Source of the DNA: Escherichia phage SP27 | Sequence record: LC494302.1 | Length of the DNA: 64,000 nt | Reading direction: 5' to 3' (one strand) | In this document: positions 35,399-48,360 of the stretch, piece after piece | How positions within the stretch are numbered: the first letter of the stretch is position 1 | How the letters are laid out: every line of letters starts with the position of its first letter | Position numbers and translations under genes: made by a program | The notes under the pieces: generated by a model | The model's input: only the letters and a program-made list of their open reading frames with translations | Database searches by the model: none | Told to the model about the DNA's origin: nothing

Positions 35399-35581
35399 AT
35401 GCACAAAGAATACTACACACAATTTCTCCCCAGCATTTTTGAACACTACGCCAGATACAAAGTCCCTATGGATAACGATTTGGCAGTACTGGGATTCAAT
35501 AACTGCATAGAACGAAGTATAGAAAATAGTAGTAGTTATGACCAGCTATATAACACTATCCTACTTATATTCAGGTACTAA
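35399..35581 (+). CDS. small protein, S1 tandem family
   Basis: MHKEYYTQFLP; ends ..ILLIFRY; TAATATG junction. Confidence 0.55.
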   Translation: MHKEYYTQFLPSIFEHYARYKVPMDNDLAVLGFNNCIERSIENSSSYDQLYNTILLIFRY

Positions 35582-35582
35582 C

Positions 35583-35771
35583 ATGCATAAAGAATACTAC
35601 ACAAAATATTTCCCAATGTACCTCAGAACTAATCTATTAGATAAACCTCGCGGTATCAATGCACAAAATGATAAAGTGTATTTTACTATGTGCACTAAAG
35701 CATGTATACTAGATTTTGACAGCTACCATCGAGTACTGTATCATACCCTGTACCTAGCTTTCGTATTCTAA
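35583..35771 (+). CDS. small protein, S1 tandem family
   Basis: internal ATG 35583 (MHKEYYTKYFP); ends ..LYLAFVF. Confidence 0.55.
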   Translation: MHKEYYTKYFPMYLRTNLLDKPRGINAQNDKVYFTMCTKACILDFDSYHRVLYHTLYLAFVF

Positions 35772-35780
35772 GAGAACAAT

Positions 35781-35966
35781 ATGCATAAAGAATTCTACTT
35801 AAGCCATCTGGATCTAAACTCCCAAATGCTTATACCACTAATCCCAATAGATATCAAGGATAAGAAAAATACCGAACAATTCATTTACCATACACAGTGT
35901 GCGATCACCCCAAATTACATTCCATATGAATTGTACTACATTATCGCCCTAATATATAGGTACTAA
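35781..35966 (+). CDS. small protein, S1 tandem family
   Basis: MHKEFYLSHL; ends ..IALIYRY. Confidence 0.55.
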   Translation: MHKEFYLSHLDLNSQMLIPLIPIDIKDKKNTEQFIYHTQCAITPNYIPYELYYIIALIYRY

Positions 35967-35967
35967 T

Positions 35968-36153
35968 ATGCATAGAGAATACTACACACAATTTGTTAAA
36001 GGGAACTACAAACATGCCGTACCCAGAACCCCTTTAAATTCTCATGACCCAAGTACTATATTCTTGTTTAATGACGCAATACGTACAGTACTCAATACTA
36101 AAGATGAAGATGTGCAGTACGTATTCTTACTATTACTTATATACAGACACTAA
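35968..36153 (+). CDS. small protein, S1 tandem family
   Basis: MHREYYTQFV; ends ..LLLIYRH. Confidence 0.55.
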   Translation: MHREYYTQFVKGNYKHAVPRTPLNSHDPSTIFLFNDAIRTVLNTKDEDVQYVFLLLLIYRH

Positions 36154-36158
36154 CTAAT

Positions 36159-36341
36159 ATGAATAAAGAACATAAAGAATTCTATATACGAAAACTAACA
36201 TTCGTCCCCGTAAGAATATATAAAGAATGCGACCCAAGATTATACCTATGGCACTTCAATGAGTGCATAAAAGATTCTATATACCATAAGAACTATAAAG
36301 AACAATTGTGCTCAGTACTAACACTAGTACTATCATATTAA
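36159..36341 (+). CDS. small protein, S1 tandem family
   Basis: MNKEHKEFYIRKL; ends ..LTLVLSY. Confidence 0.55.
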   Translation: MNKEHKEFYIRKLTFVPVRIYKECDPRLYLWHFNECIKDSIYHKNYKEQLCSVLTLVLSY

Positions 36342-36356
36342 TTAATAGAGAATACT

Positions 36357-36548
36357 ATGTATAAAAACTTCTATATAAGTAAACTAAAAGAAAATGAACA
36401 AGTATGGATTAGATCTATAATTCCACTGGCATTTAATAGATATGCATTTAACAGATGTACCGAGATTGCTATAGACCCTTATAATATTAAAGAGAATGTA
36501 CAGTATAATCAGTACTACTATATCTTAATGCTTATATATAGAAAGTAA
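36357..36548 (+). CDS. small protein, S1 tandem family (last member)
   Basis: MYKNFYISKL; ends ..LMLIYRK. Confidence 0.55.
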   Translation: MYKNFYISKLKENEQVWIRSIIPLAFNRYAFNRCTEIAIDPYNIKENVQYNQYYYILMLIYRK

Positions 36549-37184
36549 TTAAACACATAGAGACAGGGGAAGCTCCTAGTGAACAACCTTTATGTACAGG
36601 CGAATTGTTAAAATTCAGCCTGGACAAATGCGATCACTAGGATTCTCCCCAGGCTAAACCCCGTAATCATAGGTAGTCATAAGTAATCATATATAAACAT
36701 TTATATGAGCACCGTAGAATCACAGAATGATTATATATGATTCAGTACTGATTAGTATAGACAAGAATGCTCAAGAATGCACGGGAAGGATTCAGAATGA
36801 TTCAGTACTGATATGCCACTAAGTAGGCAGAGGAAGTCTGCCGTACTTTGTAGTTTCCAAGCTCCTTTTCCATTTTGCAAATTACATCAAATGTAATCAA
36901 AAGTAATCACGCAATGATTAGTACTGAATTATTACTTTCACCTTAATTTCAATTACCCCTTTACCCTTCGGGGTAAAATTCAATTACCCCTTGAGGCTCC
37001 AGCAAAAAGTTGGTTAGTACTCCATCCTAAATCTGGATCGTAAAAAATTTGGAGTACCTATGAAATAAAAGTTGGATCTTCGAAAGTTGAAATTTACGTT
37101 GGGACATATAGGATTTGTGGGATATAATGAGTTTTGTAGCGATACAGATTATACGATTTCAGTACTGAATAATGAAAGAAAGCT

Positions 37185-37212
37185 ATTGACATTATGATTC
37201 AGTACTGTATAA
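37185..37212 (+). promoter_or_regulatory. orphan sigma70-like promoter in ORF-free region
   Basis: TTGACA-16-TATAAT with no ORF downstream. Confidence 0.4.
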
Positions 37213-37599
37213 TGTTCTACATAGGGTGATGAGTTGCTGCGAACAATTCATTTACTCTACCTCCTGTCGTGAGACAGTACAGAAAAGATAGTTCCTCCTG
37301 TGGTGGTACATCTTTTTGAACCTCATATGAAAATCGTAATAACAGTACTGATATTAACAGAATGGTGTCAGTACTGATTTTAATCTAAAGCATTATGCCA
37401 CCAGCACAAGTTGGTGGATTCCCTCTAACAGTATTCAGTACTACATGATAGTCTTCATCCTCCTAGGGTAACATAGTGAGGGCTATGATGGCAGTACTGA
37501 ATACTCCCTTTCAAAAGATAGATCTATGGTATAGTACTGACGGATTTTGGGTGTAGTTACCCTGGATGGATTTTGGACGTAGATATGTCTAGCCCTCCA

Positions 37600-37735
37600 G
37601 AAGTCTGGAAGTAAAGATGGCTATCCATCTAGACGGCTAAACGGATAGATTTCTGGATGGCTGGATGGCTAGACGTTTGGACGGCTAAACGGCTAGATGG
37701 TTACACGTCTGGAAGTATAGACGGCTAAATCAAAA
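37600..37735. repeat. cluster of short direct repeats (GACGGCTAAACGG / GGATGGCT / CTAGACG)
   Basis: GACGGCTAAACGG x3-4 and GGATGGCT x3 within about 130 bp. Confidence 0.55.
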
Positions 37736-38074
37736 TTTTATTTTGTTTTTTCCAATAGTTCCCCTACCGCGTGGGGATAGTTTCCCCGCAGTATCTGGAG
37801 TTAGATTTTTCTGAATCTGGAATCATTATCTTATAAACTGGGGGCAATGTCAACGGCCTGGACGGATATTTTTAAAAATTTTTTCAGTACTGAATTTTGG
37901 GCGTAACTATGCACCCGGTGGGCTTGAGTCTTTCTCGACTTGATGGAACTATTATACAGTACTGAAAAAATAAAGCAATACCCTGGAAGCAAAAAAGTTT
38001 TAATTAATTTGCTTGCTATCCTGGGCCGGACTATGGTACTATATTTCAGTACTGAGAAAGTGCGTTTACCTGCT

Positions 38075-38145
38075 AGGGTGCGGGAGTGTATCCTTTTTTT
38101 ATATCTTGAATTTTGGGCGTAATTCCGCACCCTCTGGGGTTTCCG
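38075..38145 (+). repeat. leader-box-like element with long-range stem
   Basis: AGGGTGCGGGAGTGTATC ... CCGCACCCT: 9-bp inverted repeat enclosing about 40 nt. Confidence 0.35.
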
Positions 38146-38233
38146 CTTTCTCGCGTCTATGTAGTAATTATACGCTTTTTCAGGATCAAGTCAATACCTA
38201 AAAACAAAATAATTGAAAATAATTTAACGCGTT

Positions 38234-38322
38234 TAAACGGCCCGTAACGCCCTGGAATGATTAGAATGGTGCAAATGTATAGCTTAGGTGTATTAATGCG
38301 TTAGAATGCGTCTGAGGCCGTT
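38234..38322. repeat. inverted-repeat-bounded element containing GTTAGAATGCG motif
   Basis: AAACGGCC ... GGCCGTTT arms; GTTAGAATGCG also recurs near 44328 (rc), 44397, 48431. Confidence 0.35.
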
Positions 38323-38469
38323 TTATGGGGTGTAGTAGTGATTTGGTTGATTCAGTACTGAATAATAGTACTCCTATATAGAAAGATAGTTCCCCTGGAT
38401 GGTTGCAGTACTGAATAATAGTACTCCTATATAGAAAGAAAACTATTTTAAAAGTATTTGTAGAAAGTA

Positions 38470-38530
38470 CTTGCACCGTACTGATAAAAGCGTATAATGT
38501 TTTACATCGAGAGCGGGAACACTTCCCGCT
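38470..38530 (+). promoter_or_regulatory. PeSL cassette
   Basis: ACTTGCAC..GCGTATAATGTTTTACATC + hairpin AGCGGGAACACTTCCCGCT. Confidence 0.65.
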
Positions 38531-38553
38531 ACACATTAAGAGAGATTAAAACG

Positions 38554-38916
38554 ATGGCGACTCAAATCAATAAAATCATGCTTAACCTGGTAAACTTCCG
38601 CGATGAGATGAAAGGTCTTCCGGCTGAAACTGTAAAAATTCACATTGCAGCTTATCGGGAACTTATTGCAATGTTGCCGCTTAAGCGTGAACAATACGCC
38701 GCTACTTTGATGCTGGATTCAATGATCCATATAATGATCTCAAATGATTTAACGATGGTTTATCAGTACATGGGCGAAAATTTCGCGGTGTGTAGTAAGC
38801 CAGTACCAGGGATGGCAACAACTGAGGAATTGCACGGCTTAAACTTAAAACAAGATGCATGGGATAATATGCCTCGTTTCCTGGTATGGGCTGACAGTGG
38901 CAAAATTTACAAATAA
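38554..38916 (+). CDS. hypothetical protein
   Basis: PeSL cassette then AAGAGAG RBS before ATG 38554 (track ORF start lies in promoter). Confidence 0.6.
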   Translation: MATQINKIMLNLVNFRDEMKGLPAETVKIHIAAYRELIAMLPLKREQYAATLMLDSMIHIMISNDLTMVYQYMGENFAVCSKPVPGMATTEELHGLNLKQDAWDNMPRFLVWADSGKIYK

Positions 38917-38930
38917 GTTTAATAAAGTAC

Positions 38931-38990
38931 TTGCAAACTATGTTTAATGGCGTATAATGTTTTACATCAGGTGGGGAATAGTTCCCCACT
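38931..38990 (+). promoter_or_regulatory. PeSL cassette
   Basis: TTGCAA-16-TATAAT + hairpin GTGGGGAATAGTTCCCCAC. Confidence 0.65.
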
Positions 38991-39008
38991 ATATAAGAGG
39001 ATTAAAAA

Positions 39009-39248
39009 ATGGCTAAATCAAAAATGTTCTTAGGTCACAAAAACAAAACTCATTGGAATGTAAGCCTGTGGATTAATAACGATGAGGGATTGTATCGGTT
39101 GGCCCTGGACTTTATTGCCGCCAATACTAATCGCAATGATGCGGCCCGTCATATGATGTTATTTTTAGAACAGACTGGACAAGATAAAACACCGGACGGA
39201 TTCAAATATAGCACTACTGCGATCCGTGCGGCGATGGTTGGAATGTAA
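39009..39248 (+). CDS. hypothetical protein, family C (paralog of 41050..41289)
   Basis: PeSL + AAGAGG RBS; shared GHKNKTHWNVSLWINN and PDGFKYSTTAIRAAMVGM. Confidence 0.65.
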   Translation: MAKSKMFLGHKNKTHWNVSLWINNDEGLYRLALDFIAANTNRNDAARHMMLFLEQTGQDKTPDGFKYSTTAIRAAMVGM

Positions 39249-39261
39249 TAGAATTTATTTA

Positions 39262-39297
39262 AAGTACTATCATTTTTTTGCGATAGTACTTTATAAT
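39262..39297 (+). promoter_or_regulatory. promoter with AGTACTAT..ATAGTACT palindrome (operator-like)
   Basis: AGTACTATC..GATAGTACT inverted repeat + TATAAT; weak -35. Confidence 0.4.
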
Positions 39298-39334
39298 AGT
39301 GTTTTATTCATACACCAACGATAAGGGCAACAGC

Positions 39335-39601
39335 ATGAATATTAAGTATTTTGCGACGCGTGAACAAGCTCGGATCGCCGCACGCCAGGACGGGGCAACG
39401 TTTAAAGATATGGGAGCGGGATCGGCAAGTGGTGAACGTTGGGCCATTGTAAAGCGTAGTACGGCCAGATCTTTACAGTACTGGTTAGCGGCCTTAAAAA
39501 GTCCCGATAGTGTATCGCGTCGAGTGGTAGAAATAAAGCTCGACCGAAAGGGCAACCGCGTGACCGTGTACCGTACTAAAAAGATTGCAGTACTTGAATA
39601 A
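39335..39601 (+). CDS. hypothetical protein, family A (paralog of 52376..52771)
   Basis: AAGGG before ATG 39335; shared FYATREQARI..TFKDMG and DRKGNRVTVY. Confidence 0.6.
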   Translation: MNIKYFATREQARIAARQDGATFKDMGAGSASGERWAIVKRSTARSLQYWLAALKSPDSVSRRVVEIKLDRKGNRVTVYRTKKIAVLE

Positions 39602-39608
39602 AAAGTAC

Positions 39609-39668
39609 TTGCAAACTATGTTTAATGGCGTATAATGTTTTACATCGAGAGCGGGAACACTTCCCGCC
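39609..39668 (+). promoter_or_regulatory. PeSL cassette
   Basis: near-identical to 38931 copy; hairpin AGCGGGAACACTTCCCGC. Confidence 0.65.
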
Positions 39669-39688
39669 TATAACCTGGAGTAATAAAA

Positions 39689-39919
39689 ATGACTAATATG
39701 TATATGACTGAAGTTAAAACCGTAAAAGATACTACCACGAATAAAACTACTTACTTACAGCGGATCTGTGGTGTATGGCAACGTATCAGCAAATCAAAGT
39801 ACTTTAAATTAACATCATATGCAAATCGTTCGGATTCATTCAGTACTGAAATAAAAGGTAATAAAGTACACCAATACGGCACTTATTATTATTATAGCCT
39901 GGACGCGATTGCAGTATAA
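39689..39919 (+). CDS. hypothetical protein
   Basis: PeSL + GGAG RBS; 76 aa. Confidence 0.55.
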   Translation: MTNMYMTEVKTVKDTTTNKTTYLQRICGVWQRISKSKYFKLTSYANRSDSFSTEIKGNKVHQYGTYYYYSLDAIAV

Positions 39920-39949
39920 GCAGTTTACAAATCTTTACAATTGCCGGTA

Positions 39950-39978
39950 TTGACTTATTTTGTCAGTACTGGCATAAT
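39950..39978 (+). promoter_or_regulatory. sigma70-like promoter
   Basis: TTGACT-17-CATAAT, leader box follows about 25 nt downstream. Confidence 0.45.
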
Positions 39979-40002
39979 GTATTCATTGGCAGATAAGCCG
40001 TA

Positions 40003-40030
40003 GCCCATAGGGTGCGGGAGTGTATCTATA
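40003..40030 (+). promoter_or_regulatory. conserved leader box AGCCCAYAGGGTGC..GTGTATCTA
   Basis: one of 7 copies, each about 20-25 nt after a promoter -10. Confidence 0.4.
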
Positions 40031-40169
40031 GAAAAAGTAGTTTAGTATAGTTACAATTGTGCACCCGGTGGGTTAGCTGTTGTCATGGGGTATATTATGC
40101 CAGTACTTGATAATGCTGTCAATACTTTTTTTTTAATATTCAGTACTGAAAACTATTTTTAAAAAGTAC

Positions 40170-40320
40170 TTGCAAACTATGTTTAAAGGCGTATAATGTT
40201 TTACATCAGGACGGGGAACGAAATAAGTAACTTCCCGTTAAGTAGCCCAGGAGTAAGGCACACGAAAAACTCCCCTGATAAAATAGTTTGACAATTGTTT
40301 TTAAAAGCGTATAATACTTA
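40170..40320 (+). promoter_or_regulatory. dual-promoter cassette with structured leader (copy 1)
   Basis: TTGCAA/TATAAT, then about 70-nt element ATCAGGACGGGGAACG..ACTCCCCTGAT, then TTGACA-16-TATAAT; about 90% identical to 51146..51292. Confidence 0.55.
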
Positions 40321-40347
40321 CATCAACTACTGAATGAGGGTTACAAA

Positions 40348-40959
40348 ATGAAAACTATCACTACTACTACTTATGTTATGGCTTTTTCTGAATTGAACGC
40401 AGAACAACAAACGTCAGCTATCGAACTGGTTCGGGAACGTGAAAAAAACTTAAACGATGATTATTTTTCTGAAAGTGAAATTGAATACTATAAAGAAACA
40501 GTACTACCGGAATATGGCATTAATGACGCTGAAATACAATTCAGTGGCTTTTGGTCCCAGGGTGACGGTGCATCAATCAGTACTGACCACGTTGACGCAG
40601 TGAAGTTTTTACGCAAGGTAAGAGCATTAACTAAGTATCGCTCAATCCGTCACTTGCTGAATGAAGATGATTTGGCGATGAGTGTAAAGCGTTCGCACTC
40701 CCACTACTCGCATGAGAATACTGTAAGCGGGTACATTGAATCGGCTTACACTGATTTAACCGCAAAACAAGAAACGTTAGTTAATGAGCTTGAGGAACTA
40801 CTCACTGAAACTATTCGTGAATTATCCCGCAAGTTGTACCGTGATTTAGAGAATGCATATGAGGATCAATTCACTACTGAAAACATTACGGCACTGATTG
40901 AGGGTAACGAATATCAATTCAATGTTATTGATGGAGTAGTAGAATCAATCGAATATTAA
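40348..40959 (+). CDS. hypothetical acidic protein (203 aa)
   Basis: TTGACA/TATAAT promoter and GAGGG RBS upstream. Confidence 0.6.
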   Translation: MKTITTTTYVMAFSELNAEQQTSAIELVREREKNLNDDYFSESEIEYYKETVLPEYGINDAEIQFSGFWSQGDGASISTDHVDAVKFLRKVRALTKYRSIRHLLNEDDLAMSVKRSHSHYSHENTVSGYIESAYTDLTAKQETLVNELEELLTETIRELSRKLYRDLENAYEDQFTTENITALIEGNEYQFNVIDGVVESIEY

Positions 40960-40971
40960 TTTAAAAAGTAC

Positions 40972-41034
40972 TTGCAAACTAAGTTTAAAAGCGTATAATA
41001 CTTTATATCGAGGCGGGGAGTGGTTCCCCGCTCA
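40972..41034 (+). promoter_or_regulatory. PeSL cassette
   Basis: TTGCAA-16-TATAAT + hairpin GGCGGGGAGTGGTTCCCCGCTC. Confidence 0.65.
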
Positions 41035-41049
41035 AACGAGGATTTAAAA

Positions 41050-41289
41050 ATGGCTAGTACTAAAACTTACAACGGACACAAAAACAAAACTCATTGGAAT
41101 GTAAGCCTTTGGATTAATAACGGTGAGTCATTGTATCGGCTTGCTCAAAGTTGCATCGCACAAAGTAGAACTAAAGATATTGCTGCGGAATGTATGTACC
41201 GCAGATTAAAAGCCAACGGTACTACTACAACGCCGGACGGCTTTAAGTATAGCACTACTGCGATCCGTGCTGCAATGGTTGGAATGTAA
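41050..41289 (+). CDS. hypothetical protein, family C (paralog of 39009..39248)
   Basis: PeSL + GAGGA RBS before ATG 41050. Confidence 0.65.
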   Translation: MASTKTYNGHKNKTHWNVSLWINNGESLYRLAQSCIAQSRTKDIAAECMYRRLKANGTTTTPDGFKYSTTAIRAAMVGM

Positions 41290-41346
41290 TATTCAGTACT
41301 GAGATAATGGCGGGAACTATTACCCGCCTTTACTGAGGGTTATCTA

Positions 41347-41634
41347 ATGAGTAAAGTAATAAAGTACAATGTGTTAAGCAAATCATTGTCTATCAGTGAA
41401 TGCACCGATGGTTTTTGGATGTACGATGAAACGCGTGGCATGAATTTAGCTATGCGTGCAAAAACTGCTGAGGCGGCGTATATTCAAGCACTGGAATACT
41501 ACCAGGAACGTTTGAAGGAAGTAGAAGAAGATTATAAAAGCCTCAAAGCGAAAGTAGATCATTTCGTCGGTCAATTCGTGGAAGACAACGACGAGGACGG
41601 GCACTACTGCGACCGTTGCGGATCTTACAGTTAA
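41347..41634 (+). CDS. hypothetical protein
   Basis: hairpin then GAGGG RBS; 95 aa, C-terminal CDRC. Confidence 0.55.
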   Translation: MSKVIKYNVLSKSLSISECTDGFWMYDETRGMNLAMRAKTAEAAYIQALEYYQERLKEVEEDYKSLKAKVDHFVGQFVEDNDEDGHYCDRCGSYS

Positions 41635-41651
41635 GTACTAAGGATTATATA

Positions 41652-41864
41652 ATGAGTGATTTAATTGAACGTATCAAAGAGCTTGAAGAAAAAGAATTGC
41701 AGTTGATCGGGTTACGGAATAAAGTATTCCATGATTTAGGTGGCTTTATTAATGCCTGGGATAGTGGCGATCCTGATGCGTTACCTGCTAACCGCCAGGC
41801 GATGATCAATGATGTGCGTGGTGTCTTTGATTATGTTTTAAAAGTACTAGACACTAAGCAATAA
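41652..41864 (+). CDS. hypothetical protein
   Basis: AAGGA RBS before ATG 41652. Confidence 0.5.
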   Translation: MSDLIERIKELEEKELQLIGLRNKVFHDLGGFINAWDSGDPDALPANRQAMINDVRGVFDYVLKVLDTKQ

Positions 41865-41925
41865 AGGCGTATAATACTTTATATTGGTACTGACAAACAT
41901 TATAAGCGATGCAGGAGCTTTAATC

Positions 41926-42111
41926 ATGACAACATTATCTGAGGTTATCCGCGATCAAGCTGCAAAGGCTGGAATGACTGTTATCAATGTAGGGATCAAG
42001 ATTGAGATCTCCCCTAACGAGTTGCAAGGGATTCCCGATCCTACTAGCTGGGATCGTGCTGGGCGAATGATGAGTAATGCTTCATTACTGGACGGTACAA
42101 AATTTAATTAA
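41926..42111 (+). CDS. hypothetical protein
   Basis: AGGAG RBS before ATG 41926. Confidence 0.5.
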   Translation: MTTLSEVIRDQAAKAGMTVINVGIKIEISPNELQGIPDPTSWDRAGRMMSNASLLDGTKFN

Positions 42112-42118
42112 AAAGTAC

Positions 42119-42180
42119 TTGCAATTAGTTTTCAGTACTGTATAATGGTTTACATCAAAGGGAGAAATGGTTCTCCCTGG
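42119..42180 (+). promoter_or_regulatory. PeSL cassette
   Basis: TTGCAA-16-TATAAT + hairpin GGGAGAAATGGTTCTCCC. Confidence 0.65.
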
Positions 42181-42196
42181 TAATGAGGAAAATACA

Positions 42197-42418
42197 ATGG
42201 CTAATATCACTACTCTTTCCCAACTGGAAGCACTGGTTAAATCTATGCGGGAACATGCCGACAAAATCGGCGTACAAGATCCAGCCGTTTGCTTCTGCGA
42301 CGAATTGAATGATGATACACTGGTAATAGCAGAAGTCCAGGACGTTTCTAACTATTCCTCGCGTTACACTGGCGGCGTAGCAAATAAAGGTGACTTCTGT
42401 TTATACCTTACAAAATAA
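42197..42418 (+). CDS. hypothetical protein
   Basis: PeSL + GAGGA RBS before ATG 42197; followed by hairpin terminator. Confidence 0.6.
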   Translation: MANITTLSQLEALVKSMREHADKIGVQDPAVCFCDELNDDTLVIAEVQDVSNYSSRYTGGVANKGDFCLYLTK

Positions 42419-42421
42419 CAA

Positions 42422-42452
42422 CGCGGGGAGATAATAACTCCCCGTTACTTTT
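42422..42452 (+). terminator. rho-independent terminator
   Basis: CGGGGAGATAATAACTCCCCG + TTACTTTTT. Confidence 0.6.
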
Positions 42453-42586
42453 TCAGTACTGAATCATTTAATAGACGGATCTCGGCACCCGGTGGGTTAG
42501 TGACTGTTTCGTCTTGATGTAGTAATTATGCCAGTACTGGATGCACTTGTCAACAACTATTTTTCAAATACTTTTTATTAAAATAC

Positions 42587-42645
42587 TTGCAATTAGTTTT
42601 TAAACGCGTATAATGTTTTGCATAGGGGGAGCGGTTCCCCTGGTA
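42587..42645 (+). promoter_or_regulatory. PeSL cassette
   Basis: TTGCAA-16-TATAAT + hairpin GGGGGAGCGGTTCCCC. Confidence 0.65.
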
Positions 42646-42661
42646 ACTAAGGAATAATAAA

Positions 42662-42898
42662 ATGCTTGAACAAATCAAATCAACGTCTGCGAATGTAACG
42701 GGAACGGTTGTACACTTTACTAGTGATGAATCGCGGGGCGTTCCCTATTGTGCTGTACATGTAAACACTGATGGCAACTACTGGTTTACGGTTTACGGAT
42801 CATATTCATTTGGACGGCCAGGGCATCAAAAAATTCTGGATAAAGTACAACCAACGGGTAAAAATATCACTGCCGAAATGTTTTATAAAAAATCATAA
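42662..42898 (+). CDS. hypothetical protein
   Basis: PeSL + AAGGA RBS; 78 aa. Confidence 0.6.
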   Translation: MLEQIKSTSANVTGTVVHFTSDESRGVPYCAVHVNTDGNYWFTVYGSYSFGRPGHQKILDKVQPTGKNITAEMFYKKS

Positions 42899-42903
42899 AG
42901 TAC

Positions 42904-42965
42904 TTGCAATTAGTTTTTAGTACTGTATAATATTTTACATCGCAAGGGGAAACGGTTTCCCCTGG
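42904..42965 (+). promoter_or_regulatory. PeSL cassette
   Basis: TTGCAA-16-TATAAT + hairpin GGGGAAACGGTTTCCCC. Confidence 0.65.
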
Positions 42966-42982
42966 TAACTAAGGATAATCAA

Positions 42983-43282
42983 ATGAAAATTGCAATCATC
43001 GCCCTGGCTTTATCTGTTTCCTCTTTCGCTGTTAATGCGTCGTTAGATGTAAGTAGTGAAAAATTCATTCAGTGCACTGTTGCAATGACCGATGAAAGAA
43101 CTGGCGAGATTGTATTAAAGGATTTAGAGATCCAGCCGGAAGCATTTAAAAACGGCCCGTTCCATGAAGAAGACGAAAACGGTAGCACGACAATTTATTA
43201 TGATGCCAGTTCCAAGCGTGGATCGGTCACTGTAATGGATACTGAGAAAGTAACACACACAGGCGTTATTAATTGCCGTTGA
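42983..43282 (+). CDS. hypothetical secreted protein
   Basis: PeSL + AAGGA RBS; signal peptide MKIAIIALALSVSSFAVNA. Confidence 0.6.
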   Translation: MKIAIIALALSVSSFAVNASLDVSSEKFIQCTVAMTDERTGEIVLKDLEIQPEAFKNGPFHEEDENGSTTIYYDASSKRGSVTVMDTEKVTHTGVINCR

Positions 43283-43303
43283 TAGATACTACGGGGTAAC
43301 ATC

Positions 43304-43534
43304 ATGACTAAGCGAATTGTTTTACTTAACGAAAGCAGTACTACACAACTACTTAACGCCGTGCATTATGATATTGAAACGAGCGTTAATCTTATCAGTA
43401 CTGTAGTACTGTTGGACACTGGAAAGGTCGCCAATGATAAAGCGATTGCAGGTATATTAACGGATCTTGAGCCTGGTAGCAGTGCACCCATAACGTTAAA
43501 TGGTAAAGTGTTTAATATTTTACTCACTGATTAA
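43304..43534 (+). CDS. hypothetical protein
   Basis: GGGG RBS; 76 aa; followed by hairpin terminator. Confidence 0.55.
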   Translation: MTKRIVLLNESSTTQLLNAVHYDIETSVNLISTVVLLDTGKVANDKAIAGILTDLEPGSSAPITLNGKVFNILLTD

Positions 43535-43540
43535 GTACAT

Positions 43541-43568
43541 AGCCCACCAGGTGGGCTTTTTTGTTTTT
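43541..43568 (+). terminator. rho-independent terminator
   Basis: AGCCCACCAGGTGGGCT + TTTTTGTTTTT. Confidence 0.7.
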
Positions 43569-43616
43569 ATAGTATCGTAGTACTGAGATACTTTGAAAAT
43601 AGTTTTAAGAAAGTAG

Positions 43617-43700
43617 TTGACATTACCACAGAAAAGCGTAGAATGTATTACATCAAGACGGGGAGCACTAAGTAGACCGCCAGTAAGTCGAACGAAAAAC
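43617..43700 (+). promoter_or_regulatory. promoter + divergent structured leader
   Basis: TTGACA-16-TAGAAT then ACATCAAGACGGGGAGC.. element partly similar to the 40200/51180 leader. Confidence 0.4.
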
Positions 43701-43767
43701 TGGACACGTCGAGAAAACTTTGATACACTAATAAACGTAAACTAAACTTTAATTGAGGATTTATAAA

Positions 43768-44250
43768 ATGGCTAATGTAAAATCATTCATCAAAGCACTG
43801 GTAGCAAATGAAACTAACGTCGCGGCTGAGATCCTGGCTGAACTGGATAACGATACCATGAAAGCGGTACGCAATAATTTTAACATCGCGTACAGTACTG
43901 CGAAAGAACTACAAGCAAATAAAGCGGCAGAAATTGAAGCGGCAAAGGCGGCCCGTGAAGCAGAACTACAAGCAACAATCGAAAGTATCCAGGCGGCGGT
44001 GTCTGGATTGGATCTGGAAGTGGTTGTGGAAATGGCACATAAAGCCCTGGCGGTTAAGTATGGTGAAGATAAGCCAGAATCTAAACCTAAAAAATGGATT
44101 CAAGAACGTGTTACTGTAGTACTTGATAACGGGGAAGAACATATGATTCCTGTACGCGGTAACTGCATTGCGGTAGTACTGGACGCTATCAAAGAAAGCG
44201 GTATGACTCGCGAGGAATGGATCGAAGCTCATCGCAAAGTTGAAGCATAA
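43768..44250 (+). CDS. hypothetical protein with Ala/Glu-rich helical segment
   Basis: GAGGA RBS before ATG 43768; followed by hairpin terminator. Confidence 0.6.
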   Translation: MANVKSFIKALVANETNVAAEILAELDNDTMKAVRNNFNIAYSTAKELQANKAAEIEAAKAAREAELQATIESIQAAVSGLDLEVVVEMAHKALAVKYGEDKPESKPKKWIQERVTVVLDNGEEHMIPVRGNCIAVVLDAIKESGMTREEWIEAHRKVEA

Positions 44251-44271
44251 CAATTAAAGTACTGAATCACT

Positions 44272-44300
44272 AGCCCACCTTAAACAGTGGGCTTTTTTGT
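44272..44300 (+). terminator. rho-independent terminator
   Basis: AGCCCACC..AGTGGGCT + TTTTTGTG. Confidence 0.65.
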
Positions 44301-44309
44301 GTCTGTAGT

Positions 44310-44410
44310 ATTCCAGTCCACCAGCACCGCCTAGAATCGATTCTAACGCATTAAACTGATTATCTGATGCATTGCCCTAGCTGGTGGCGTGAAGGTCGTT
44401 AGAATGCGAT
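44310..44410. repeat. nested imperfect inverted repeats
   Basis: CCACCAGC..GCTGGTGG and AGAATCGATTCTAACGC / CGTTAGAATGCGATT arms. Confidence 0.4.
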
Positions 44411-44452
44411 TGAGAGCGTTTAAAGTATTTTGCAAAAAGTAATAAAAAGTAC

Positions 44453-44515
44453 TTGCACGATTAAGAGATTAGCGTATAATGTTTTACATCGAGAGGGGGA
44501 AACGGTTCTCCTTCC
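44453..44515 (+). promoter_or_regulatory. PeSL cassette
   Basis: TTGCAC..TATAAT + hairpin GAGGGGGAAACGGTTCTCCTTC. Confidence 0.6.
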
Positions 44516-44535
44516 AAATCAAAGGAATCAAAACA

Positions 44536-44763
44536 ATGGCTATTATCATTACTCGCGTATCTGGTACTACTGGCAACGAACAAGTAGTTGCAGTCATTAC
44601 CAACAAGGAAGGTGCGGAATTGCAAAATGCAATGAATACCTGGGCCGTTAATGAGTTCGGTCAGTGGGCAAGTGTAGCATACATTGAAACCTATCAAGTG
44701 CCGTCGATTAGTTTAACTGATTTGGGCGTTGAGCGTATCCTTTGCCTGGATGAATTAAATTAA
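44536..44763 (+). CDS. hypothetical protein
   Basis: PeSL + AAGGAA RBS before ATG 44536. Confidence 0.6.
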   Translation: MAIIITRVSGTTGNEQVVAVITNKEGAELQNAMNTWAVNEFGQWASVAYIETYQVPSISLTDLGVERILCLDELN

Positions 44764-44771
44764 AAAAGTAC

Positions 44772-44831
44772 TTGCAAAGTAAATCGAATAAAGTATAATA
44801 CATTACATCAAGGGGAGAAATGGTTCTCCCC
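44772..44831 (+). promoter_or_regulatory. PeSL cassette
   Basis: TTGCAA-16-TATAAT + hairpin GGGGAGAAATGGTTCTCCCC. Confidence 0.65.
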
Positions 44832-44848
44832 ACTACAAGGAAACTAAA

Positions 44849-44992
44849 ATGAAAACTTGTCAATGTGGTCAGAAATCTATTACGGGTTTAAAGCGGGGCG
44901 TTGCTCTTTGCCAGTACCATTATAATTTACAAGTATGGGGTAAAGAATGGGCCGACCAGGTGGAAGCAGCAAAGAAAGCAAAAAGTAAGTAA
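44849..44992 (+). CDS. hypothetical small Cys-containing protein (47 aa)
   Basis: PeSL + AAGGAAA RBS; ORF MKTCQCGQKSITGLKRGVALCQYHYN...; below track cutoff. Confidence 0.45.
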   Translation: MKTCQCGQKSITGLKRGVALCQYHYNLQVWGKEWADQVEAAKKAKSK

Positions 44993-45002
44993 AAATATTA
45001 TC

Positions 45003-45040
45003 ACAGTACTATTGACATAGTTTGATAGTACTGGCATAAT
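45003..45040 (+). promoter_or_regulatory. palindromic-operator promoter
   Basis: AGTACTATTGACATAGTTTGATAGTACT: TTGACA-17-CATAAT flanked by AGTACTAT/ATAGTACT inverted repeat. Confidence 0.55.
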
Positions 45041-45073
45041 AGATTTTATCAAGACAACTAAGAGGAAATTAAA

Positions 45074-45418
45074 ATGGCTAACATCAATACTATAGCAGCA
45101 CAAAATATCAACCTGTCTTCTGTTGAAGTTGTACACATTGCCGCCCGGCGTTGGTTCCAGGCGTCTTATGGTAATACTTATTTCTCTTTAACGGTAGATG
45201 TTGAAATCAATGGCGAATTTATTGAAGTAGTAAACGTGCCGTTCCAATATGGCTACGGGGATCATTTTGACACTGTAGCAATGGAAGAATTTAGCAAGGT
45301 TATTAATATGGAAGGTAAAGAGTTTTTACGCGGTTCTTATCTTTCCCGTTTTTGCCGTGATAATAATATCACTGTTTATAGTTCGGTAACTGATGTTAAA
45401 CGCAAAAAAGATCTTTAA
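45074..45418 (+). CDS. hypothetical protein, family B (paralog of 51957..52280)
   Basis: palindromic promoter + AGAGGAA RBS; shared GNTY..YGYG..DVKRKKD. Confidence 0.6.
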   Translation: MANINTIAAQNINLSSVEVVHIAARRWFQASYGNTYFSLTVDVEINGEFIEVVNVPFQYGYGDHFDTVAMEEFSKVINMEGKEFLRGSYLSRFCRDNNITVYSSVTDVKRKKDL

Positions 45419-45498
45419 TTAGCTTTACTTTATGCAGATACTTTGATATAGTGTCTGCATAGGGGAAAGAAATTAAATTAACTTAAGAGGATAGTATA

Positions 45499-45768
45499 AT
45501 GAAAAATATCAGTACTTTAATCGATGCAGGTACACATGTTCGGCGGTCTATGGTTGCAACCAGTACTACAAAACAAGTAGCGAGCGGTTATCTTGTATTT
45601 GTGCACGATGGAAAACTCCTGGAACGTTCAATCAATTTTGATGTTAAAAACAATTGCCGTTTTATTATCTTTAAGCGTGAGCAATATAAAATTGATTTAC
45701 CAGCAAAGCCCATTAGTGGGGCGTACAACGTGCAATCAATGTTTGAACGTCAACCATACACCTATTAA
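45499..45768 (+). CDS. hypothetical protein
   Basis: AGAGGA RBS; 89 aa. Confidence 0.55.
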   Translation: MKNISTLIDAGTHVRRSMVATSTTKQVASGYLVFVHDGKLLERSINFDVKNNCRFIIFKREQYKIDLPAKPISGAYNVQSMFERQPYTY

Positions 45769-45819
45769 TCAAAACATCGTTAGCGGTCGATTCAGGCCGC
45801 TTATATTGGGGATTATACC

Positions 45820-46092
45820 ATGAACGTTAATCAAGTACTGAATGAGATCGAAAGCATCATTAAACCGATGAAGCGTACTGATGCTATGTTAACACCGGAA
45901 GAATGCCGCCTTTATGAGCGTTACAGCGTCGAACAAGTCCAGGCAATGGCTATGGCTACCCCAGCCGTTAAACCGCCTGAGAATGCGTTACAGGACGTTA
46001 CAGGGGATTATATCATCAATCCAGTACTAGGGAAGATGGCTGCAATCACCGAAGATCAACAAGACTACTTAAGCCAGTACTTAAAAGGTTAA
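45820..46092 (+). CDS. hypothetical protein
   Basis: GGGGA RBS; 90 aa; contains 20-nt stretch also found in intergenic DNA near 48430. Confidence 0.55.
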   Translation: MNVNQVLNEIESIIKPMKRTDAMLTPEECRLYERYSVEQVQAMAMATPAVKPPENALQDVTGDYIINPVLGKMAAITEDQQDYLSQYLKG

Positions 46093-46097
46093 TTAAT

Positions 46098-46307
46098 ATG
46101 CTTACTGTACAGGATAAGATCGACATCTTAAAGGTTAATATGTATGTGATTGATGCAGTACCTGGTAAAGTATTTGCATACGATGATAGTACTGTAAGCG
46201 ATTTCTACTATAGCCAGGCCGTGGGGGATCTTTCTGTACAGTCGGTTATTGAAAACGTAGTTAATGCAGCGTATGAGCATTTACTTTCAAATAGTACTTG
46301 CAATTAG
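46098..46307 (+). CDS. hypothetical protein
   Basis: AAAGG RBS; 3' end overlaps next PeSL promoter. Confidence 0.5.
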   Translation: MLTVQDKIDILKVNMYVIDAVPGKVFAYDDSTVSDFYYSQAVGDLSVQSVIENVVNAAYEHLLSNSTCN

Positions 46308-46357
46308 TTTTTAAACGCGTATAATGTTTTACATGAAGGGGAGAAATGATTCTCCCC
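46298..46357 (+). promoter_or_regulatory. PeSL cassette
   Basis: TTGCAA-16-TATAAT + hairpin GGGGAGAAATGATTCTCCCC. Confidence 0.65.
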
Positions 46358-46376
46358 ACTAATTAAGGAATATGAA

Positions 46377-46523
46377 ATGAAAGCATCAAAAAAGAGTACT
46401 AACAAGAAAGCACGTTCAACCTTAGATGGGGTATTCCCTTTACGTTTCGTTGATGAAGTGGTTTCCTACCCGCCTGGCCTTACTCCTGAGATGGTAGAAA
46501 GTTTGCGTAAATCTAAAAAATAG
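46377..46523 (+). CDS. hypothetical small basic protein (48 aa)
   Basis: PeSL + AAGGAA RBS 6 nt before ATG 46377; below track cutoff. Confidence 0.45.
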   Translation: MKASKKSTNKKARSTLDGVFPLRFVDEVVSYPPGLTPEMVESLRKSKK

Positions 46524-46526
46524 TAC

Positions 46527-46587
46527 TTGCAATTAGTTTTTAGTACTGTATAATGTTTTACATAGAGGGGGGAAATGGTTCTCCCCA
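46527..46587 (+). promoter_or_regulatory. PeSL cassette
   Basis: TTGCAA-16-TATAAT + hairpin GGGGGGAAATGGTTCTCCCC. Confidence 0.65.
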
Positions 46588-46604
46588 ATAACAGGAGAAA
46601 CAAA

Positions 46605-46757
46605 ATGAAACAATACAACGCTCGGTTTGATGTTACTATCGGCAACGGTAAAGGTCAATTCTCTTTCAGTACTCGACGCAGTTATACAGAAAACTTCCTG
46701 CGTAATTGTGCACTGACCGCCGCACAAATTAAACATTACTTTCAGGCTAAAAAATGA
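46605..46757 (+). CDS. hypothetical small protein (50 aa)
   Basis: PeSL + AGGAGAAA RBS before ATG 46605. Confidence 0.5.
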   Translation: MKQYNARFDVTIGNGKGQFSFSTRRSYTENFLRNCALTAAQIKHYFQAKK

Positions 46758-46843
46758 GATCATTAGCTTATTACAGTTCGGCCCTGGTCGGTGCATTGAT
46801 CGCGGCGTTGTTAGTAACCTATCTATTCTTTATGGTGATTTAA
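46754..46843 (+). CDS. possible tiny hydrophobic peptide (29 aa)
   Basis: ATGA overlap with upstream stop; MRSLAYYSSALVGALIAALLVTYLFFMVI. Confidence 0.3.
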   Translation: MRSLAYYSSALVGALIAALLVTYLFFMVI

Positions 46844-46981
46844 ATGAATCCTAACGGTATAATTTACAGTACTCCTAAAACGAAAGCAGACAAGGTAAAC
46901 GCTAAAAAAGCGAAAGTAAAGGAGTACATCAAGCAAGGCATGACGCGAAAGGCGGCGATTCTAAAAGCTAAAAATAAATGA
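46844..46981 (+). CDS. possible small basic protein (45 aa)
   Basis: TAAATG junction; Lys-rich; followed by terminator. Confidence 0.35.
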   Translation: MNPNGIIYSTPKTKADKVNAKKAKVKEYIKQGMTRKAAILKAKNK

Positions 46982-46984
46982 AAA

Positions 46985-47012
46985 AAGTGGTTGACTTCGG
47001 TCAGCCATTTTG
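46985..47012 (+). terminator. terminator/promoter module
   Basis: GTGGTTGACTTCGGTCAGCCATTTTGCTATTATAT. Confidence 0.6.
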
Positions 47013-47045
47013 CTATTATATATTCATTGAGAGATAGCTCACTAG

Positions 47046-47076
47046 CCCACAGGGTGCAGGAGTGTATCTATTGTAT
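47046..47076 (+). promoter_or_regulatory. conserved leader box
   Basis: AGCCCACAGGGTGCAGGAGTGTATCTATTG followed by TATAAT. Confidence 0.4.
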
Positions 47077-47113
47077 AATGTTTGAGTACTTAAAACTATT
47101 TTTAAAAAAGTAC

Positions 47114-47172
47114 TTGCAAACTATCTCAATAAGCGTATAATGTTTTACATCGCAAGGGGAAACGGTTTCCCC
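47114..47172 (+). promoter_or_regulatory. PeSL cassette
   Basis: TTGCAA-16-TATAAT + hairpin GGGGAAACGGTTTCCCC. Confidence 0.65.
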
Positions 47173-47192
47173 TAGTAATAAGGAAACAAATC

Positions 47193-47534
47193 ATGACTAT
47201 CTCAATTGCTCAATCTAACTTTGAAAACGAAATCATCGCCCAGGCACTGCGTTTAAATGATGGTCGGGCCGAAATCAATTACGGTTTCAATTCAGGCGGT
47301 TGTGAAAAATATCAGTACTTTATAACTGCTGATGGCTGTGTCCTGGGCATCAATACAGTTATTGTAAACATCCAAAAAATTAATTTCAATGATCCAGACG
47401 ATAGCCAGTTTTACATCACTGGCGTAGACGTGAACTATGAGGATGACTCACTAACTGATGATCACACTGGCGAGCGGTTAGAAAGTGCATACGGTGAAGA
47501 TGATTATCAGTCCGGTCCAGAAGATTTCGAATAA
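47193..47534 (+). CDS. hypothetical acidic protein
   Basis: terminator/promoter, leader box and PeSL upstream; AAGGAAA RBS. Confidence 0.6.
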   Translation: MTISIAQSNFENEIIAQALRLNDGRAEINYGFNSGGCEKYQYFITADGCVLGINTVIVNIQKINFNDPDDSQFYITGVDVNYEDDSLTDDHTGERLESAYGEDDYQSGPEDFE

Positions 47535-47548
47535 TATAAAAAAATAGT

Positions 47549-47608
47549 TTGACAATAGATTATAGTACTGTATAATGTTTTACATGAAGGGGAGAATAGT
47601 TCTCCCCA
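47549..47608 (+). promoter_or_regulatory. PeSL cassette
   Basis: TTGACA-16-TATAAT + hairpin GGGGAGAATAGTTCTCCCC. Confidence 0.65.
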
Positions 47609-47627
47609 CTAACAGAGAGAAAACAAA

Positions 47628-47840: not shown

Positions 47841-47861
47841 AAATATTATCACAGTACTATC

Positions 47862-47897
47862 AAAGCTATTGACAATGATTGATAGTACTGGCATAAT
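47862..47897 (+). promoter_or_regulatory. palindromic-operator promoter
   Basis: AGTACTATCAAAGCTATTGACAATGATTGATAGTACT + CATAAT. Confidence 0.55.
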
Positions 47898-47932
47898 AAC
47901 TTTTATCAACTACACTACTAAGGAATTAAAAA

Positions 47933-48112: not shown

Positions 48113-48130
48113 AATATATTACCAGTACTA

Positions 48131-48355: not shown

Positions 48356-48360
48356 GATTA

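Follow-up and report, generated by a model that had tools for sequence, protein, structure and literature searches.

A probable left chromosome end in Escherichia phage SP27, with a conserved non-coding leader and an array resembling MetJ operator boxes

Background

The left end of the phage T7 chromosome carries a 160-bp terminal repeat, the SRL short-repeat array and the host promoters A1 to A3 ahead of gene 0.3, and it is one of several described systems with which the DNA considered here can be compared. That DNA is a 1.9-kb segment (positions 36549-38460) within a 64,000-nucleotide stretch of Escherichia phage SP27 (LC494302.1), the whole of which is referred to below as the window. A preliminary description, drawn from the letters of the sequence, had found no credible open reading frame (ORF) in the segment and had offered several readings of it: a replication origin or packaging region, a cluster of non-coding RNAs, or a graveyard of decayed regulatory cassettes. 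Homology to relatives with mapped ends indicates that the gene-free segment is very probably the left physical end of a jumbo coliphage chromosome together with a conserved 1.7-kb control leader. The interpretation in the preliminary description is partly supported as a whole, and it missed two points, namely the physical chromosome end itself and the match between the short repeats of the segment and the operator boxes of the host repressor MetJ.

Natural MetJ operators consist of 2-5 boxes, and T4-type phages are said to possess promoter-early stem-loop (PeSL) cassettes. The left terminal repeat of phage T5 contains Untranslated Repeat Regions, including an injection-stop-signal region (Davison, bioRxiv 10.1101/866236), and terminally clustered Chi sites have been described in phages P1, LLS and MD8, the LLS-type phages being lambdoid (Genome Res 2025, PMC12315714). 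MetJ is limited to the Enterobacterales, Pasteurellales, Vibrionales, Aeromonadales and Alteromonadales (PMC3228920).

The probable left end of the chromosome

By its sequence, the window is that of an Asteriusvirus jumbo coliphage of the PBECO4/121Q/G17 group. The 1.9-kb segment is matched at 80-99% identity by 41 phage records, all but one of them from Escherichia or Salmonella phages; those whose taxonomy was checked are without exception Asteriusvirus (among them PBECO4, 121Q, G17, phAPEC6 and fEgEco12), and the unannotated record OR844650.1 is 99.9% identical to the window. In relatives whose records bear both terminal repeats, the match to the segment always lies about 20 kb from one record end. 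Position 1 of fEgEco12 and position 1 of vB_Ec-M-J both align to window position 36822, the ends of the G17 and WPEC3 records map to the same base when reverse-complemented, and in this orientation all four begin with AGTAGGCAGAGGAAGTCTGCC. For fEgEco12, direct terminal repeats of 20,993 bp have been determined by PhageTerm and restriction digests (PMC13070987), and positions 1-20993 of that record are identical to 353741-374733. A repeat is annotated at 1-21525 of the vB_Ec-M-J record, and published terminal repeats measure 20,668 bp in Sharanji (PhageTerm; PMC11895373) and about 20 kb in G17 (from coverage; PMC6563267).

Transferred to the window by homology to the four records, the left end of virion DNA has 36822 as its first base (36822-36842, AGTAGGCAGAG followed by GAAGTC), and the direct terminal repeat as a whole spans 36822-57750, a length of 20,929 bp that encompasses 10 Chi sites and about 52 small early genes. 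The right repeat boundary maps to 57750/57751, where the cut falls between GGGTAACCT and TAGCGACTTCG, and the window presents the single-copy form found in a concatemer, consisting of a unique end, one repeat and a unique start. Homology likewise shows the segment itself to be made up of the last 273 bp of unique DNA (36549-36821), the left cut site of the 20.9-kb repeat and a 1,732-bp non-coding leader.

The relatives display a fixed terminus, the same sequence at both virion ends and a conserved sequence at the cut site. In a ten-genome alignment the context of the cut is conserved, and no part of the region varies more than the 80 bp immediately beyond it. The hexamer RAAGTC, at +12 to +17 of the left end, is common to four genera, being carried outside Asteriusvirus by Klebsiella phage Muenster (Alcyoneusvirus, its terminal repeat a PhageTerm prediction), Serratia phage BF and Erwinia phage pEa_SNUABM_12 (Eneladusvirus) and XbC2 (Mimasvirus). 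At the right cut, the context CT/TAGC is common to Asteriusvirus and Muenster. The longer context there is GGGCGGGTAACCT followed by TAGCGACTTCG, within a 250-bp intergenic gap, and GACTTC, the inverse of the left-end GAAGTC, stands 4 bases outside the cut.

On a replicating concatemer, one repeat would lie between successive genomes, and terminase would cut at 36821/36822 and at 57750/57751; position 36822 would therefore be the left end of every packaged chromosome. This end would enter the cell first, an order suggested by the early genes, which read away from it. A headful pac site of the P1, P22 or SPP1 type was considered and set aside because the ends are exact in four records and in published PhageTerm analysis. 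That the segment should be a terminal-repeat boundary is nothing unusual and could already be gathered from publications on relatives. The suggestion of a packaging region was essentially right, in that the left cut of a direct terminal repeat, made at a specific sequence, falls within the segment, as does the conserved DNA adjoining it.

A conserved non-coding leader

The absence of genes from the segment is borne out by comparison with nine aligned relatives. The longest frames, of 99, 91, 62 and 60 amino acids, contain stops or frameshifts in many of the nine, the two longest (37831-38130 and 38261-38536, both on the minus strand) being disrupted in four to all nine. The curated records of G17, 121Q, PBECO4 and A4 leave the region unannotated, and the ORFs that some other records annotate there (fEgEco12 g614, six in SD-15_S21 and others) were dismissed, their frames being disrupted in relatives. 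The one frame of the region that is conserved across the relatives has 44 amino acids and a TTG start, and it lacks a ribosome-binding site. The non-coding stretch extends slightly beyond the limit first given, to 36549-38553, because the ATG at 38497 belongs to a -10 box and the next gene in fact starts at 38554. That gene encodes a 120-amino-acid product whose start is as annotated in 121Q, A4 and EJP2, where the homologues measure 363 nt. The fEgEco12 and G17 records annotate an over-long version, of 139 amino acids, of this first repeat gene.

From the end to the first start codon the leader measures 1,732 bp, and in five relatives the first coding sequence starts at the following positions: 1689 in fEgEco12, 1786 in Serratia BF, 1793 in pEa_SNUABM_12, 1726 in XbC2 and 1304 in Muenster. 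Among ten phages of the genus, conservation across non-coding positions 37000-38320 is 0.9-1.0, as against 0.79-0.93 in the flanking genes, and three blocks are collinear across genera: +176 to +242, an array of short repeats together with the hairpin behind it, and +1274 to +1350, where a cassette of leftward promoter plus hairpin is 88-91% identical to sequence in XbC2, Serratia BF and Yen9-04. The leader is as conserved as its flanking genes or more so, is collinear in at least three genera and is not decayed, and this conserved architecture is new. It may amount to a stack of cis-acting signals for DNA at a free end.

Consensus scans of the region for Fur, LexA, CRP and ArgR sites returned none, and a scan for the IHF consensus returned a single match, at 37728. 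In Muenster, the slot that the array occupies in other genera holds four or five GAGAATGATAATGATTCTCATT-like palindromes (780-900 and about 1305-1325), which resemble the Fur box GATAATGATAATCATTATC, as judged by eye, at up to 16/19 positions. This hints that sites for different host repressors may occupy the same slot of the leader.

An array of 8-bp boxes that matches the MetJ operator

About 760-905 bp from the left end, positions 37583-37726 hold tandem 8-bp boxes with the consensus AGACGGCT, which corresponds to the MetJ met box AGACGTCT by the published MetJ matrix. The short tandem repeats noted in the preliminary description are real and prove to be pieces of this one array, in which GACGGCTAAACGG occurs twice (37632 and 37680), as does GGATGGCT (37655 and 37663). 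Divided into 8-base words, the array reads AGACGGCT AAACGGAT AGATTTCT GGATGGCT and onward, with 14 consecutive strong boxes at 37615-37726 and weaker in-register boxes from 37583. It is unique in the 64 kb, its in-phase score lying about 10 standard deviations above the mean.

Sites were scored with the half-metbox matrix and site rule of Augustus and Spicer 2011 (PMC3228920), by which at least two adjacent 8-bp boxes must each reach at least 1/4 of the consensus score and together at least the consensus score. Over the 64 kb this rule returned one site, at 37615-37726, with 14 in-phase boxes and 100.2 bits; shuffles of the window gave at most 3 boxes. The control, 6.2 kb of Escherichia coli metJ-metB-metL-metF DNA, returned two sites only, one between metJ and metB and the other upstream of metF, which comprise 4 boxes each and score 31.2 and 24.9 bits; we take them to be the known MetJ operators. 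The score per box, 7.2 bits, lies within the 6.2-7.8 bits of the E. coli operators, and in 121 units from 8 phages the base frequencies at all 8 positions follow the MetJ matrix, minor bases included. Insertions and deletions in the array are multiples of 8 and keep its register: A4 and EJP2 have insertions of exactly 8 bp at window positions 37640-37680, and EJP2 has in addition a longer insertion of box-like units at the 3' end.

Despite this agreement, the array would not, if it binds MetJ, be a conventional operator, which would overlap and repress the promoter of a methionine or S-adenosylmethionine (SAM) gene: no promoter-like sites overlap it, and the gene closest to it, 830 bp away, is an early gene of the phage. 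Nor was a phage-encoded binding partner of the MetJ type found. A search of 50,697 phage records with the E. coli MetJ protein recovered no phage-encoded homologue, the matches being bacterial contigs and an unannotated 1.4-kb fragment that is taken to be host DNA, and Pfam detected no ribbon-helix-helix (RHH) family among 57 ORFs in and beside the repeat. The array itself found no match in 5,426 E. coli genomes and 72,556 plasmids, and literature searches for MetJ together with phage, and for the repeat strings, returned no relevant description of such arrays. The array is clearly MetJ-operator-like in sequence and of unprecedented length, and it would serve as a giant operator for host MetJ and its cofactor SAM.

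Similar arrays in other phages

A search for distant similarity by BLAST uncovered heterogeneous arrays of 9-28 boxes in Rak2-like, T5-like and T7-like phages, in each case within terminal repeats or terminal non-coding regions. Among jumbo phages of Eneladusvirus and Mimasvirus, the array lies 650-800 bp from the start of the record. T5-like Demerecviridae of Vibrio, Aeromonas and Providencia carry arrays as well. In Vibrio phage Pontus, 15 boxes at 484-603 stand between three TGTGGATAA DnaA boxes and T5-type DRD repeats (GTGCAAATCCGACA), a site that is the counterpart of T5 Repeat Region 3 and ties the array to the proposed T5 injection stop signal; in Aeromonas phage AhSzq-1, 28 boxes at 3969-4192 occupy a non-coding gap a few kb from genes annotated as A2 protein and DNA transfer protein. 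The T7-like Ermolevavirus PGT2 has nine boxes at positions 38-109 of an exact 260-bp terminal repeat. The hosts of the array-bearing phages all fall within the five MetJ-bearing orders, except for that of XbC2, which is recorded on Xanthomonas. A scan of IMG/VR for five degenerate boxes gave 23 matches, mostly perfect 8-bp microsatellites in unrelated or giant viruses, and heterogeneous arrays appeared in T5-like contigs only. The DRD repeats of T5 were considered as a form of the same element and rejected: their sequence, TGTGCAAATCCGACA, is unrelated, and T5 Repeat Region 3 is without an array.

The occurrence of one MetJ-box array across phage families is new. We suggest, tentatively and as a possibility rather than a probability, that the 9-28-box arrays are a hitherto unrecognised module placed in terminal repeats by three unrelated virulent lineages (Rak2-like jumbo myoviruses, T5-like siphoviruses and T7-like podoviruses of Ermolevavirus), one that recruits MetJ in a SAM-dependent manner as a sponge and perhaps as a SAM-sensing cap. 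MetJ with SAM would polymerise on the terminal DNA as a long filament. The favoured consequence is that MetJ would be sequestered as genome copies rise, with de-repression of methionine and SAM synthesis; on the rough general understanding of how many MetJ dimers a cell contains, tens of genomes, each with two arrays of at least 14 boxes, would exceed the supply. In addition, the array may serve, in a SAM-dependent manner, to mark the chromosome end or to shield it. Because such arrays always lie within terminal repeats, even one of 260 bp, an end-linked role of some kind is likely to accompany sequestration, and a SAM-sensing nucleoprotein cap might govern the fate of the end in entry, protection, recombination or packaging.

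The constant association with ends is shared by the best-surviving alternative, that the array is bound by a phage protein (a terminase small subunit, an RHH protein or an end-binding protein) as a signal for packaging or for recognition of the end in phages with direct terminal repeats, its likeness to met boxes being convergent or coincidental. The array always sits in terminal repeats or terminal non-coding DNA, taking up 72 of the 260 bp of the PGT2 repeat, and its distance from the end is alike in jumbo phages of three genera; the box differs from natural met boxes at position 6, the host given for XbC2 has no MetJ, and the short-repeat arrays of T7 reportedly adjoin its terminal repeat. 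Three families with unrelated packaging proteins nevertheless have one 8-mer consensus, which matches the MetJ matrix down to its minor bases, and the calculated chance that an arbitrary 8-mer repeat would match AGACGTCT at 7 or more of 8 positions, in any register, is about 0.003. The lack of MetJ homologues in the phage records and of RHH families in the ORFs, and the membership of all hosts other than that of XbC2 in MetJ-bearing orders, likewise make a phage-encoded binder somewhat unlikely.

Promoters, hairpins and predicted RNAs

The leader also holds signals of transcription. The orphan TTGACA/TATAAT promoter of the preliminary description is real: located at 37186-37213 on the plus strand, it has a 16-nt spacer, agrees with the sigma-70 consensus at 12/12 positions and is directed inward from a point 365 bp inside the DNA end. 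Its two hexamers persist in 10/10 relatives, including EJP2, in which overall identity is 72%, and the sequence of Muenster shows an equivalent TTGACA-17-TATAAT promoter about 270-300 bp from its own end. Host RNA polymerase would start inward at +365 and yield a structured non-coding RNA. This predicted transcript, of about 165 nt (37220-37385, plus strand), would fold into three or four hairpins and end at a 14-pair hairpin (37343-37376) followed by ATTTTAATCT; it contains no conserved ORF, and 6/33 of its pairs have compensatory changes among 7 sequences.

Directly 3' of the array, on the plus strand, 37728-37795 comprises the IHF match (37728-37740), a T-rich tract and conserved hairpins TAGTTCCCCTACCGCGTGGGGATAGTTTCCCCGC, and equivalent sequence trails the array in Serratia, Erwinia and Yersinia phages and in XbC2. 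A near-consensus promoter read from the sequence, TTGACA-17-GATAAT (37825-37853, minus strand), faces leftward toward the DNA end. At 38045-38101 on the plus strand, a nearly invariant hairpin followed by a run of seven T (38075-38094) resembles a terminator, is recognisable in Muenster and may be a small RNA or a terminator. The cassette best conserved across genera occupies 38095-38194 on the minus strand, where a second leftward promoter, TTGACT-16-TATAAT (38194-38167), precedes a hairpin; a paralogous copy is present at 37894-37960. The first early promoter cassette, also read from the sequence, spans 38471-38556 on the plus strand and consists of AAAGTACTTGCAC, a 16-nt spacer, TATAAT (38493-38498) and a stem-loop (38512-38528).

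Several promoter and hairpin cassettes without ORFs, a conserved promoter followed by hairpins with some compensatory changes, and the near-invariant hairpin-terminator shared with Muenster could indicate that most of the segment is taken up by genes for small non-coding RNAs, clustered there and acting in trans on host or phage messages. The preliminary description had called for scans for tRNAs and non-coding RNAs. ARAGORN found no tRNAs in the whole window, and the Rfam covariance models found no match with E<=1 in 35500-39500. Covariation is modest, and the array, the cut site and Chi are features of the DNA. We regard such a cluster as unlikely; a conserved promoter with a hairpin-rich predicted transcript lends it weak support, while no known RNA family does, and a segment made purely of small RNAs fits the data poorly.

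GC skew and the absence of origin features

The GC skew of the window is positive over 0-18 kb, negative over 18-36 kb and positive again from 36 kb, so that the sign changes near the segment, where the cumulative skew reaches its minimum. Gene orientation alone does not account for the skew, because the array of plus-strand genes of about 60 amino acids at 32-36 kb has negative GC skew, together with high AT skew. A skew minimum beside repeat-dense, highly conserved non-coding DNA with promoters on both strands would suit a replication origin, in which transcripts from the promoters, two of them leftward and another inward, would form R-loops that prime replication of the T4 type, with the array serving as iterons. 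The features of a DnaA/iteron-type origin are nevertheless missing from the region. None of the 10 DnaA-box matches of the window falls within it, the repeats are contiguous 8-bp boxes and not iterons spaced at 17-22 bp, and a GC content of 0.36 equals the average and offers no AT-rich unwinding element. The skew changes sign at a place where the gene module changes too and where the physical end lies, and the origins of T5 are central and outside the repeat (Davison, bioRxiv 10.1101/866236). An origin here is unlikely, the skew change being the one indirect hint of it.

That the segment is a functionless graveyard of decayed regulatory cassettes, as its promoter and hairpin units without genes, in both orientations and with paralogous copies, might suggest, is scarcely credible and fits the data poorly, given non-coding DNA conserved like the neighbouring genes or more, a block order kept in other genera at only 70-90% identity, and indels in the array that preserve its register in multiples of 8.

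Chi sites in the terminal repeat

The Chi octamer GCTGGTGG occurs on the minus strand at 37398-37405, at a distance of 577 bp from the left end and so oriented as to be active toward RecBCD that enters there. It forms the 5' arm of a hairpin (37398-37419, CCACCA..TGGTGG) annotated as a terminator in G17, one of the strong hairpins at which the predicted 165-nt transcript would end, and it is kept in 7/10 aligned sequences (the window, G17, SD-15, fEgEco12, 121Q, JNE01 and UE-S1). Its standing as a universal protective feature is weakened by the three relatives without it. The window contains 14 Chi sites where 0.66 would be expected, and 10 of them fall in the 20.9-kb repeat, as against about 0.2 expected from composition and 5 in 150 kb sampled elsewhere in the genome. 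By position and strand, those of the repeat are 37398-, 44318-, 44380+, 48377+, 49839+, 51107+, 53179+, 54583+, 56160+ and 56382+; the first two from the left look toward the left end and the remaining eight toward the right, and about half are intergenic. In Muenster, 7 sites of the repeat have one orientation and 1 the other. The Chi set would turn RecBCD attack into RecA-mediated recombination between the two repeats.

At 44318-44387, in an intergenic spacer just after a terminator, two opposed Chi sites 54 bp apart (CCACCAGC ... GCTGGTGG) mark the point within the repeat at which orientation switches. Elsewhere in the window, three minus-strand sites (24036, 24294 and 24549) lie about 255 bp apart in a CCACCA-rich stretch; these look like copies within repetitive sequence, possibly a minus-strand gene, and not independent sites.

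Elements beside the cut, AGTACT sites and neighbouring genes

The last unique DNA contains an imperfect 22-nt inverted repeat (36561-36582 and 36634-36655), 10-bp-phased GTAATCA-type repeats outside the cut (36663-36692) and, at 36720-36800, a hypervariable patch rich in indels, where two AGTACT palindromes lie and conservation drops to 0.58-0.65. Inside the cut, the left end has a 6-bp hairpin (36826-36842) and the conserved hexamer GAAGTC (36833-36838, +12 to +17); 65-100 bp in from the end, at 36886-36925, a second 10-bp-phased GTAATCA set (36893, 36903) is accompanied by an inverted TGATTAG. The two GTAATCA sets flank the cut and are candidate sites for terminase or an accessory protein. 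In vB_Ec-M-J, one additional GTAATCAAAA unit is present beside the terminus (70-100), and the copy number of the repeat differs between isolates. The best-conserved block within the genus (0.94-0.96) is 36997-37063, with AAATCTGGAT and an inverted repeat, GTACTCCA/TGGAGTAC, and it is collinear with XbC2 54-120 and Serratia BF 117-134. Terminase would recognise the elements that flank the cut, namely GAAGTC, the block at +176 to +242 and the phased GTAATCA repeats to either side.

The preliminary description had counted about 19 AGTACT sites, many of them as a 12-bp palindrome. The count stands, with 18 sites in 36549-38460 and a 19th at 38466; the exact 12-mer TTCAGTACTGAA accounts for 3 of these, with 6 more one base off, so that "many" was an overstatement. 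The segment is not special in this respect, the whole window having 280 sites against 21 expected. Density is 9.4/kb in the segment, 6.5/kb in the terminal repeat and 3.2/kb further upstream, with 1.7-3.2/kb in most of the genome, and it is zero in the 4.25 kb just past the right repeat boundary (57751-62000). Fifteen copies belong to AAAGTACTTGCA, the -35 region of early promoters, and the leaders or terminal repeats of the Klebsiella, Serratia, Erwinia and XbC2 relatives are also enriched. Two exact 34-nt direct repeats (CAGTACTGAATAATAGTACTCCTATATAGAAAGA) at 38353-38439, 53 nt apart, contain two AGTACT each.

Among the 52 small ORFs of the repeat (38554-57600), Pfam identified a ParE-like toxin, a DksA/TraR zinc finger, a GNAT acetyltransferase and two DUF7249 proteins, with a further, weak match to a protein kinase; the set fits a host-takeover module such as those in the repeats of SPO1 and T5.

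Points that weigh against the proposed reading

Several observations count against the reading of the segment as a chromosome end that carries a MetJ array and associated signals. The terminus was mapped in relatives and is placed in the SP27 stretch by homology; the recognition elements for terminase are guesses from position and conservation; entry of the left end first is presumed from the direction of the early genes, and the promoters are predictions. The Chi site nearest the end is lost in A4, CMSTMSU and EJP2 (3/10) and doubles as a hairpin arm. For the array, 43% of phage units have G at box position 6, whereas the equivalent base occurs in about 10% of natural boxes, and the matrix score alone is not proof of a MetJ site because perfect 8-bp microsatellites in unrelated viruses also satisfy the rule. 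XbC2 is recorded as a phage of Xanthomonas, which should lack MetJ, and no array is present in Klebsiella phage Muenster or in T5 itself, though their hosts have MetJ. Both the binding of MetJ to the array and the purpose that it would serve are, finally, things that we infer.

Implications and comparison with known systems

With the segment placed at a chromosome end, these 350-kb phages, which are poorly understood, acquire a defined cut site together with a candidate map of packaging, entry and early-transcription signals; the map is useful for engineering them and for the correct ordering of their assemblies. In many deposited records the starting point is arbitrary or the repeat is missing. 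With its many Chi sites, the terminal repeat brings virulent jumbo phages under the recent idea of a Chi-rich phage end. If MetJ does coat phage ends, this would be a new viral way to read or rewire the methionine and SAM metabolism of the host, would link three phage families by one host factor and would provide a handle on the function of the conserved repeat regions in terminal repeats of the T5 type.

As the left end of T7 is generally described, it resembles that of the jumbo phage in its exact terminal repeat produced by sequence-specific cutting, its hundreds of non-coding bases, its short-repeat array and its strong inward host sigma-70 promoters directed toward early genes. The jumbo-phage repeat differs in its length of 21 kb, its content of about 52 early genes, its 1.7-kb leader and its additional leftward promoters, and where the CCTAAAG repeats of T7 are dispersed, the 8-mer here is contiguous and matches a host repressor operator. 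The promoter cassettes, such as that at 38471-38528 before the first repeat gene, are similar to PeSL elements, since in both a sigma-70 promoter is followed at once by a stem-loop and the units are repeated and mobile-looking; the cassettes within the leader are unlike PeSL elements, as these are usually portrayed, in having no downstream gene and, for two of them, in pointing toward the DNA end.

The likeness to T5 lies in long terminal repeats with host-takeover genes and in conserved untranslated regions of repeats, palindromes and host-protein sites (DnaA boxes in T5) beside a repeat boundary. The jumbo-phage leader differs in having no DnaA boxes and in its place at the outer left end, whereas Repeat Region 3 of T5 is at the inner boundary, and two-step injection is not known for these jumbo phages. 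An equivalence with the T5 injection-stop-signal region, which is characterised by paired DnaA boxes in the inverted repeats IRD'/IRC' and by DRD repeats at the inner end of the left terminal repeat, was rejected on similar grounds, the leader being without DnaA boxes or DRD repeats and at the outer left end. Among phages of the T5 type, the leader has its met-box array in common only with those of Vibrio, Aeromonas and Providencia. With the Chi clusters of P1, LLS and MD8, the terminal repeat shares strong enrichment near an end accessible to RecBCD and a mostly active orientation; it departs from them in belonging to a virulent jumbo phage, whose 21-kb direct terminal repeat the cluster fills with sites facing both ends, and in that the leader segment itself holds only one of the ten sites, which is not universally conserved.

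The closest comparison for the array is with the MetJ operators of E. coli, with which it shares an 8-bp unit repeated head to tail without spacers, an agreeing consensus, base preferences and scores per box. It is set apart from them by its length, the phage arrays having 14-28 boxes as against 4 in each scanned operator, by the over-representation of G at position 6, and by its location on the DNA of a virulent phage beside the chromosome end.

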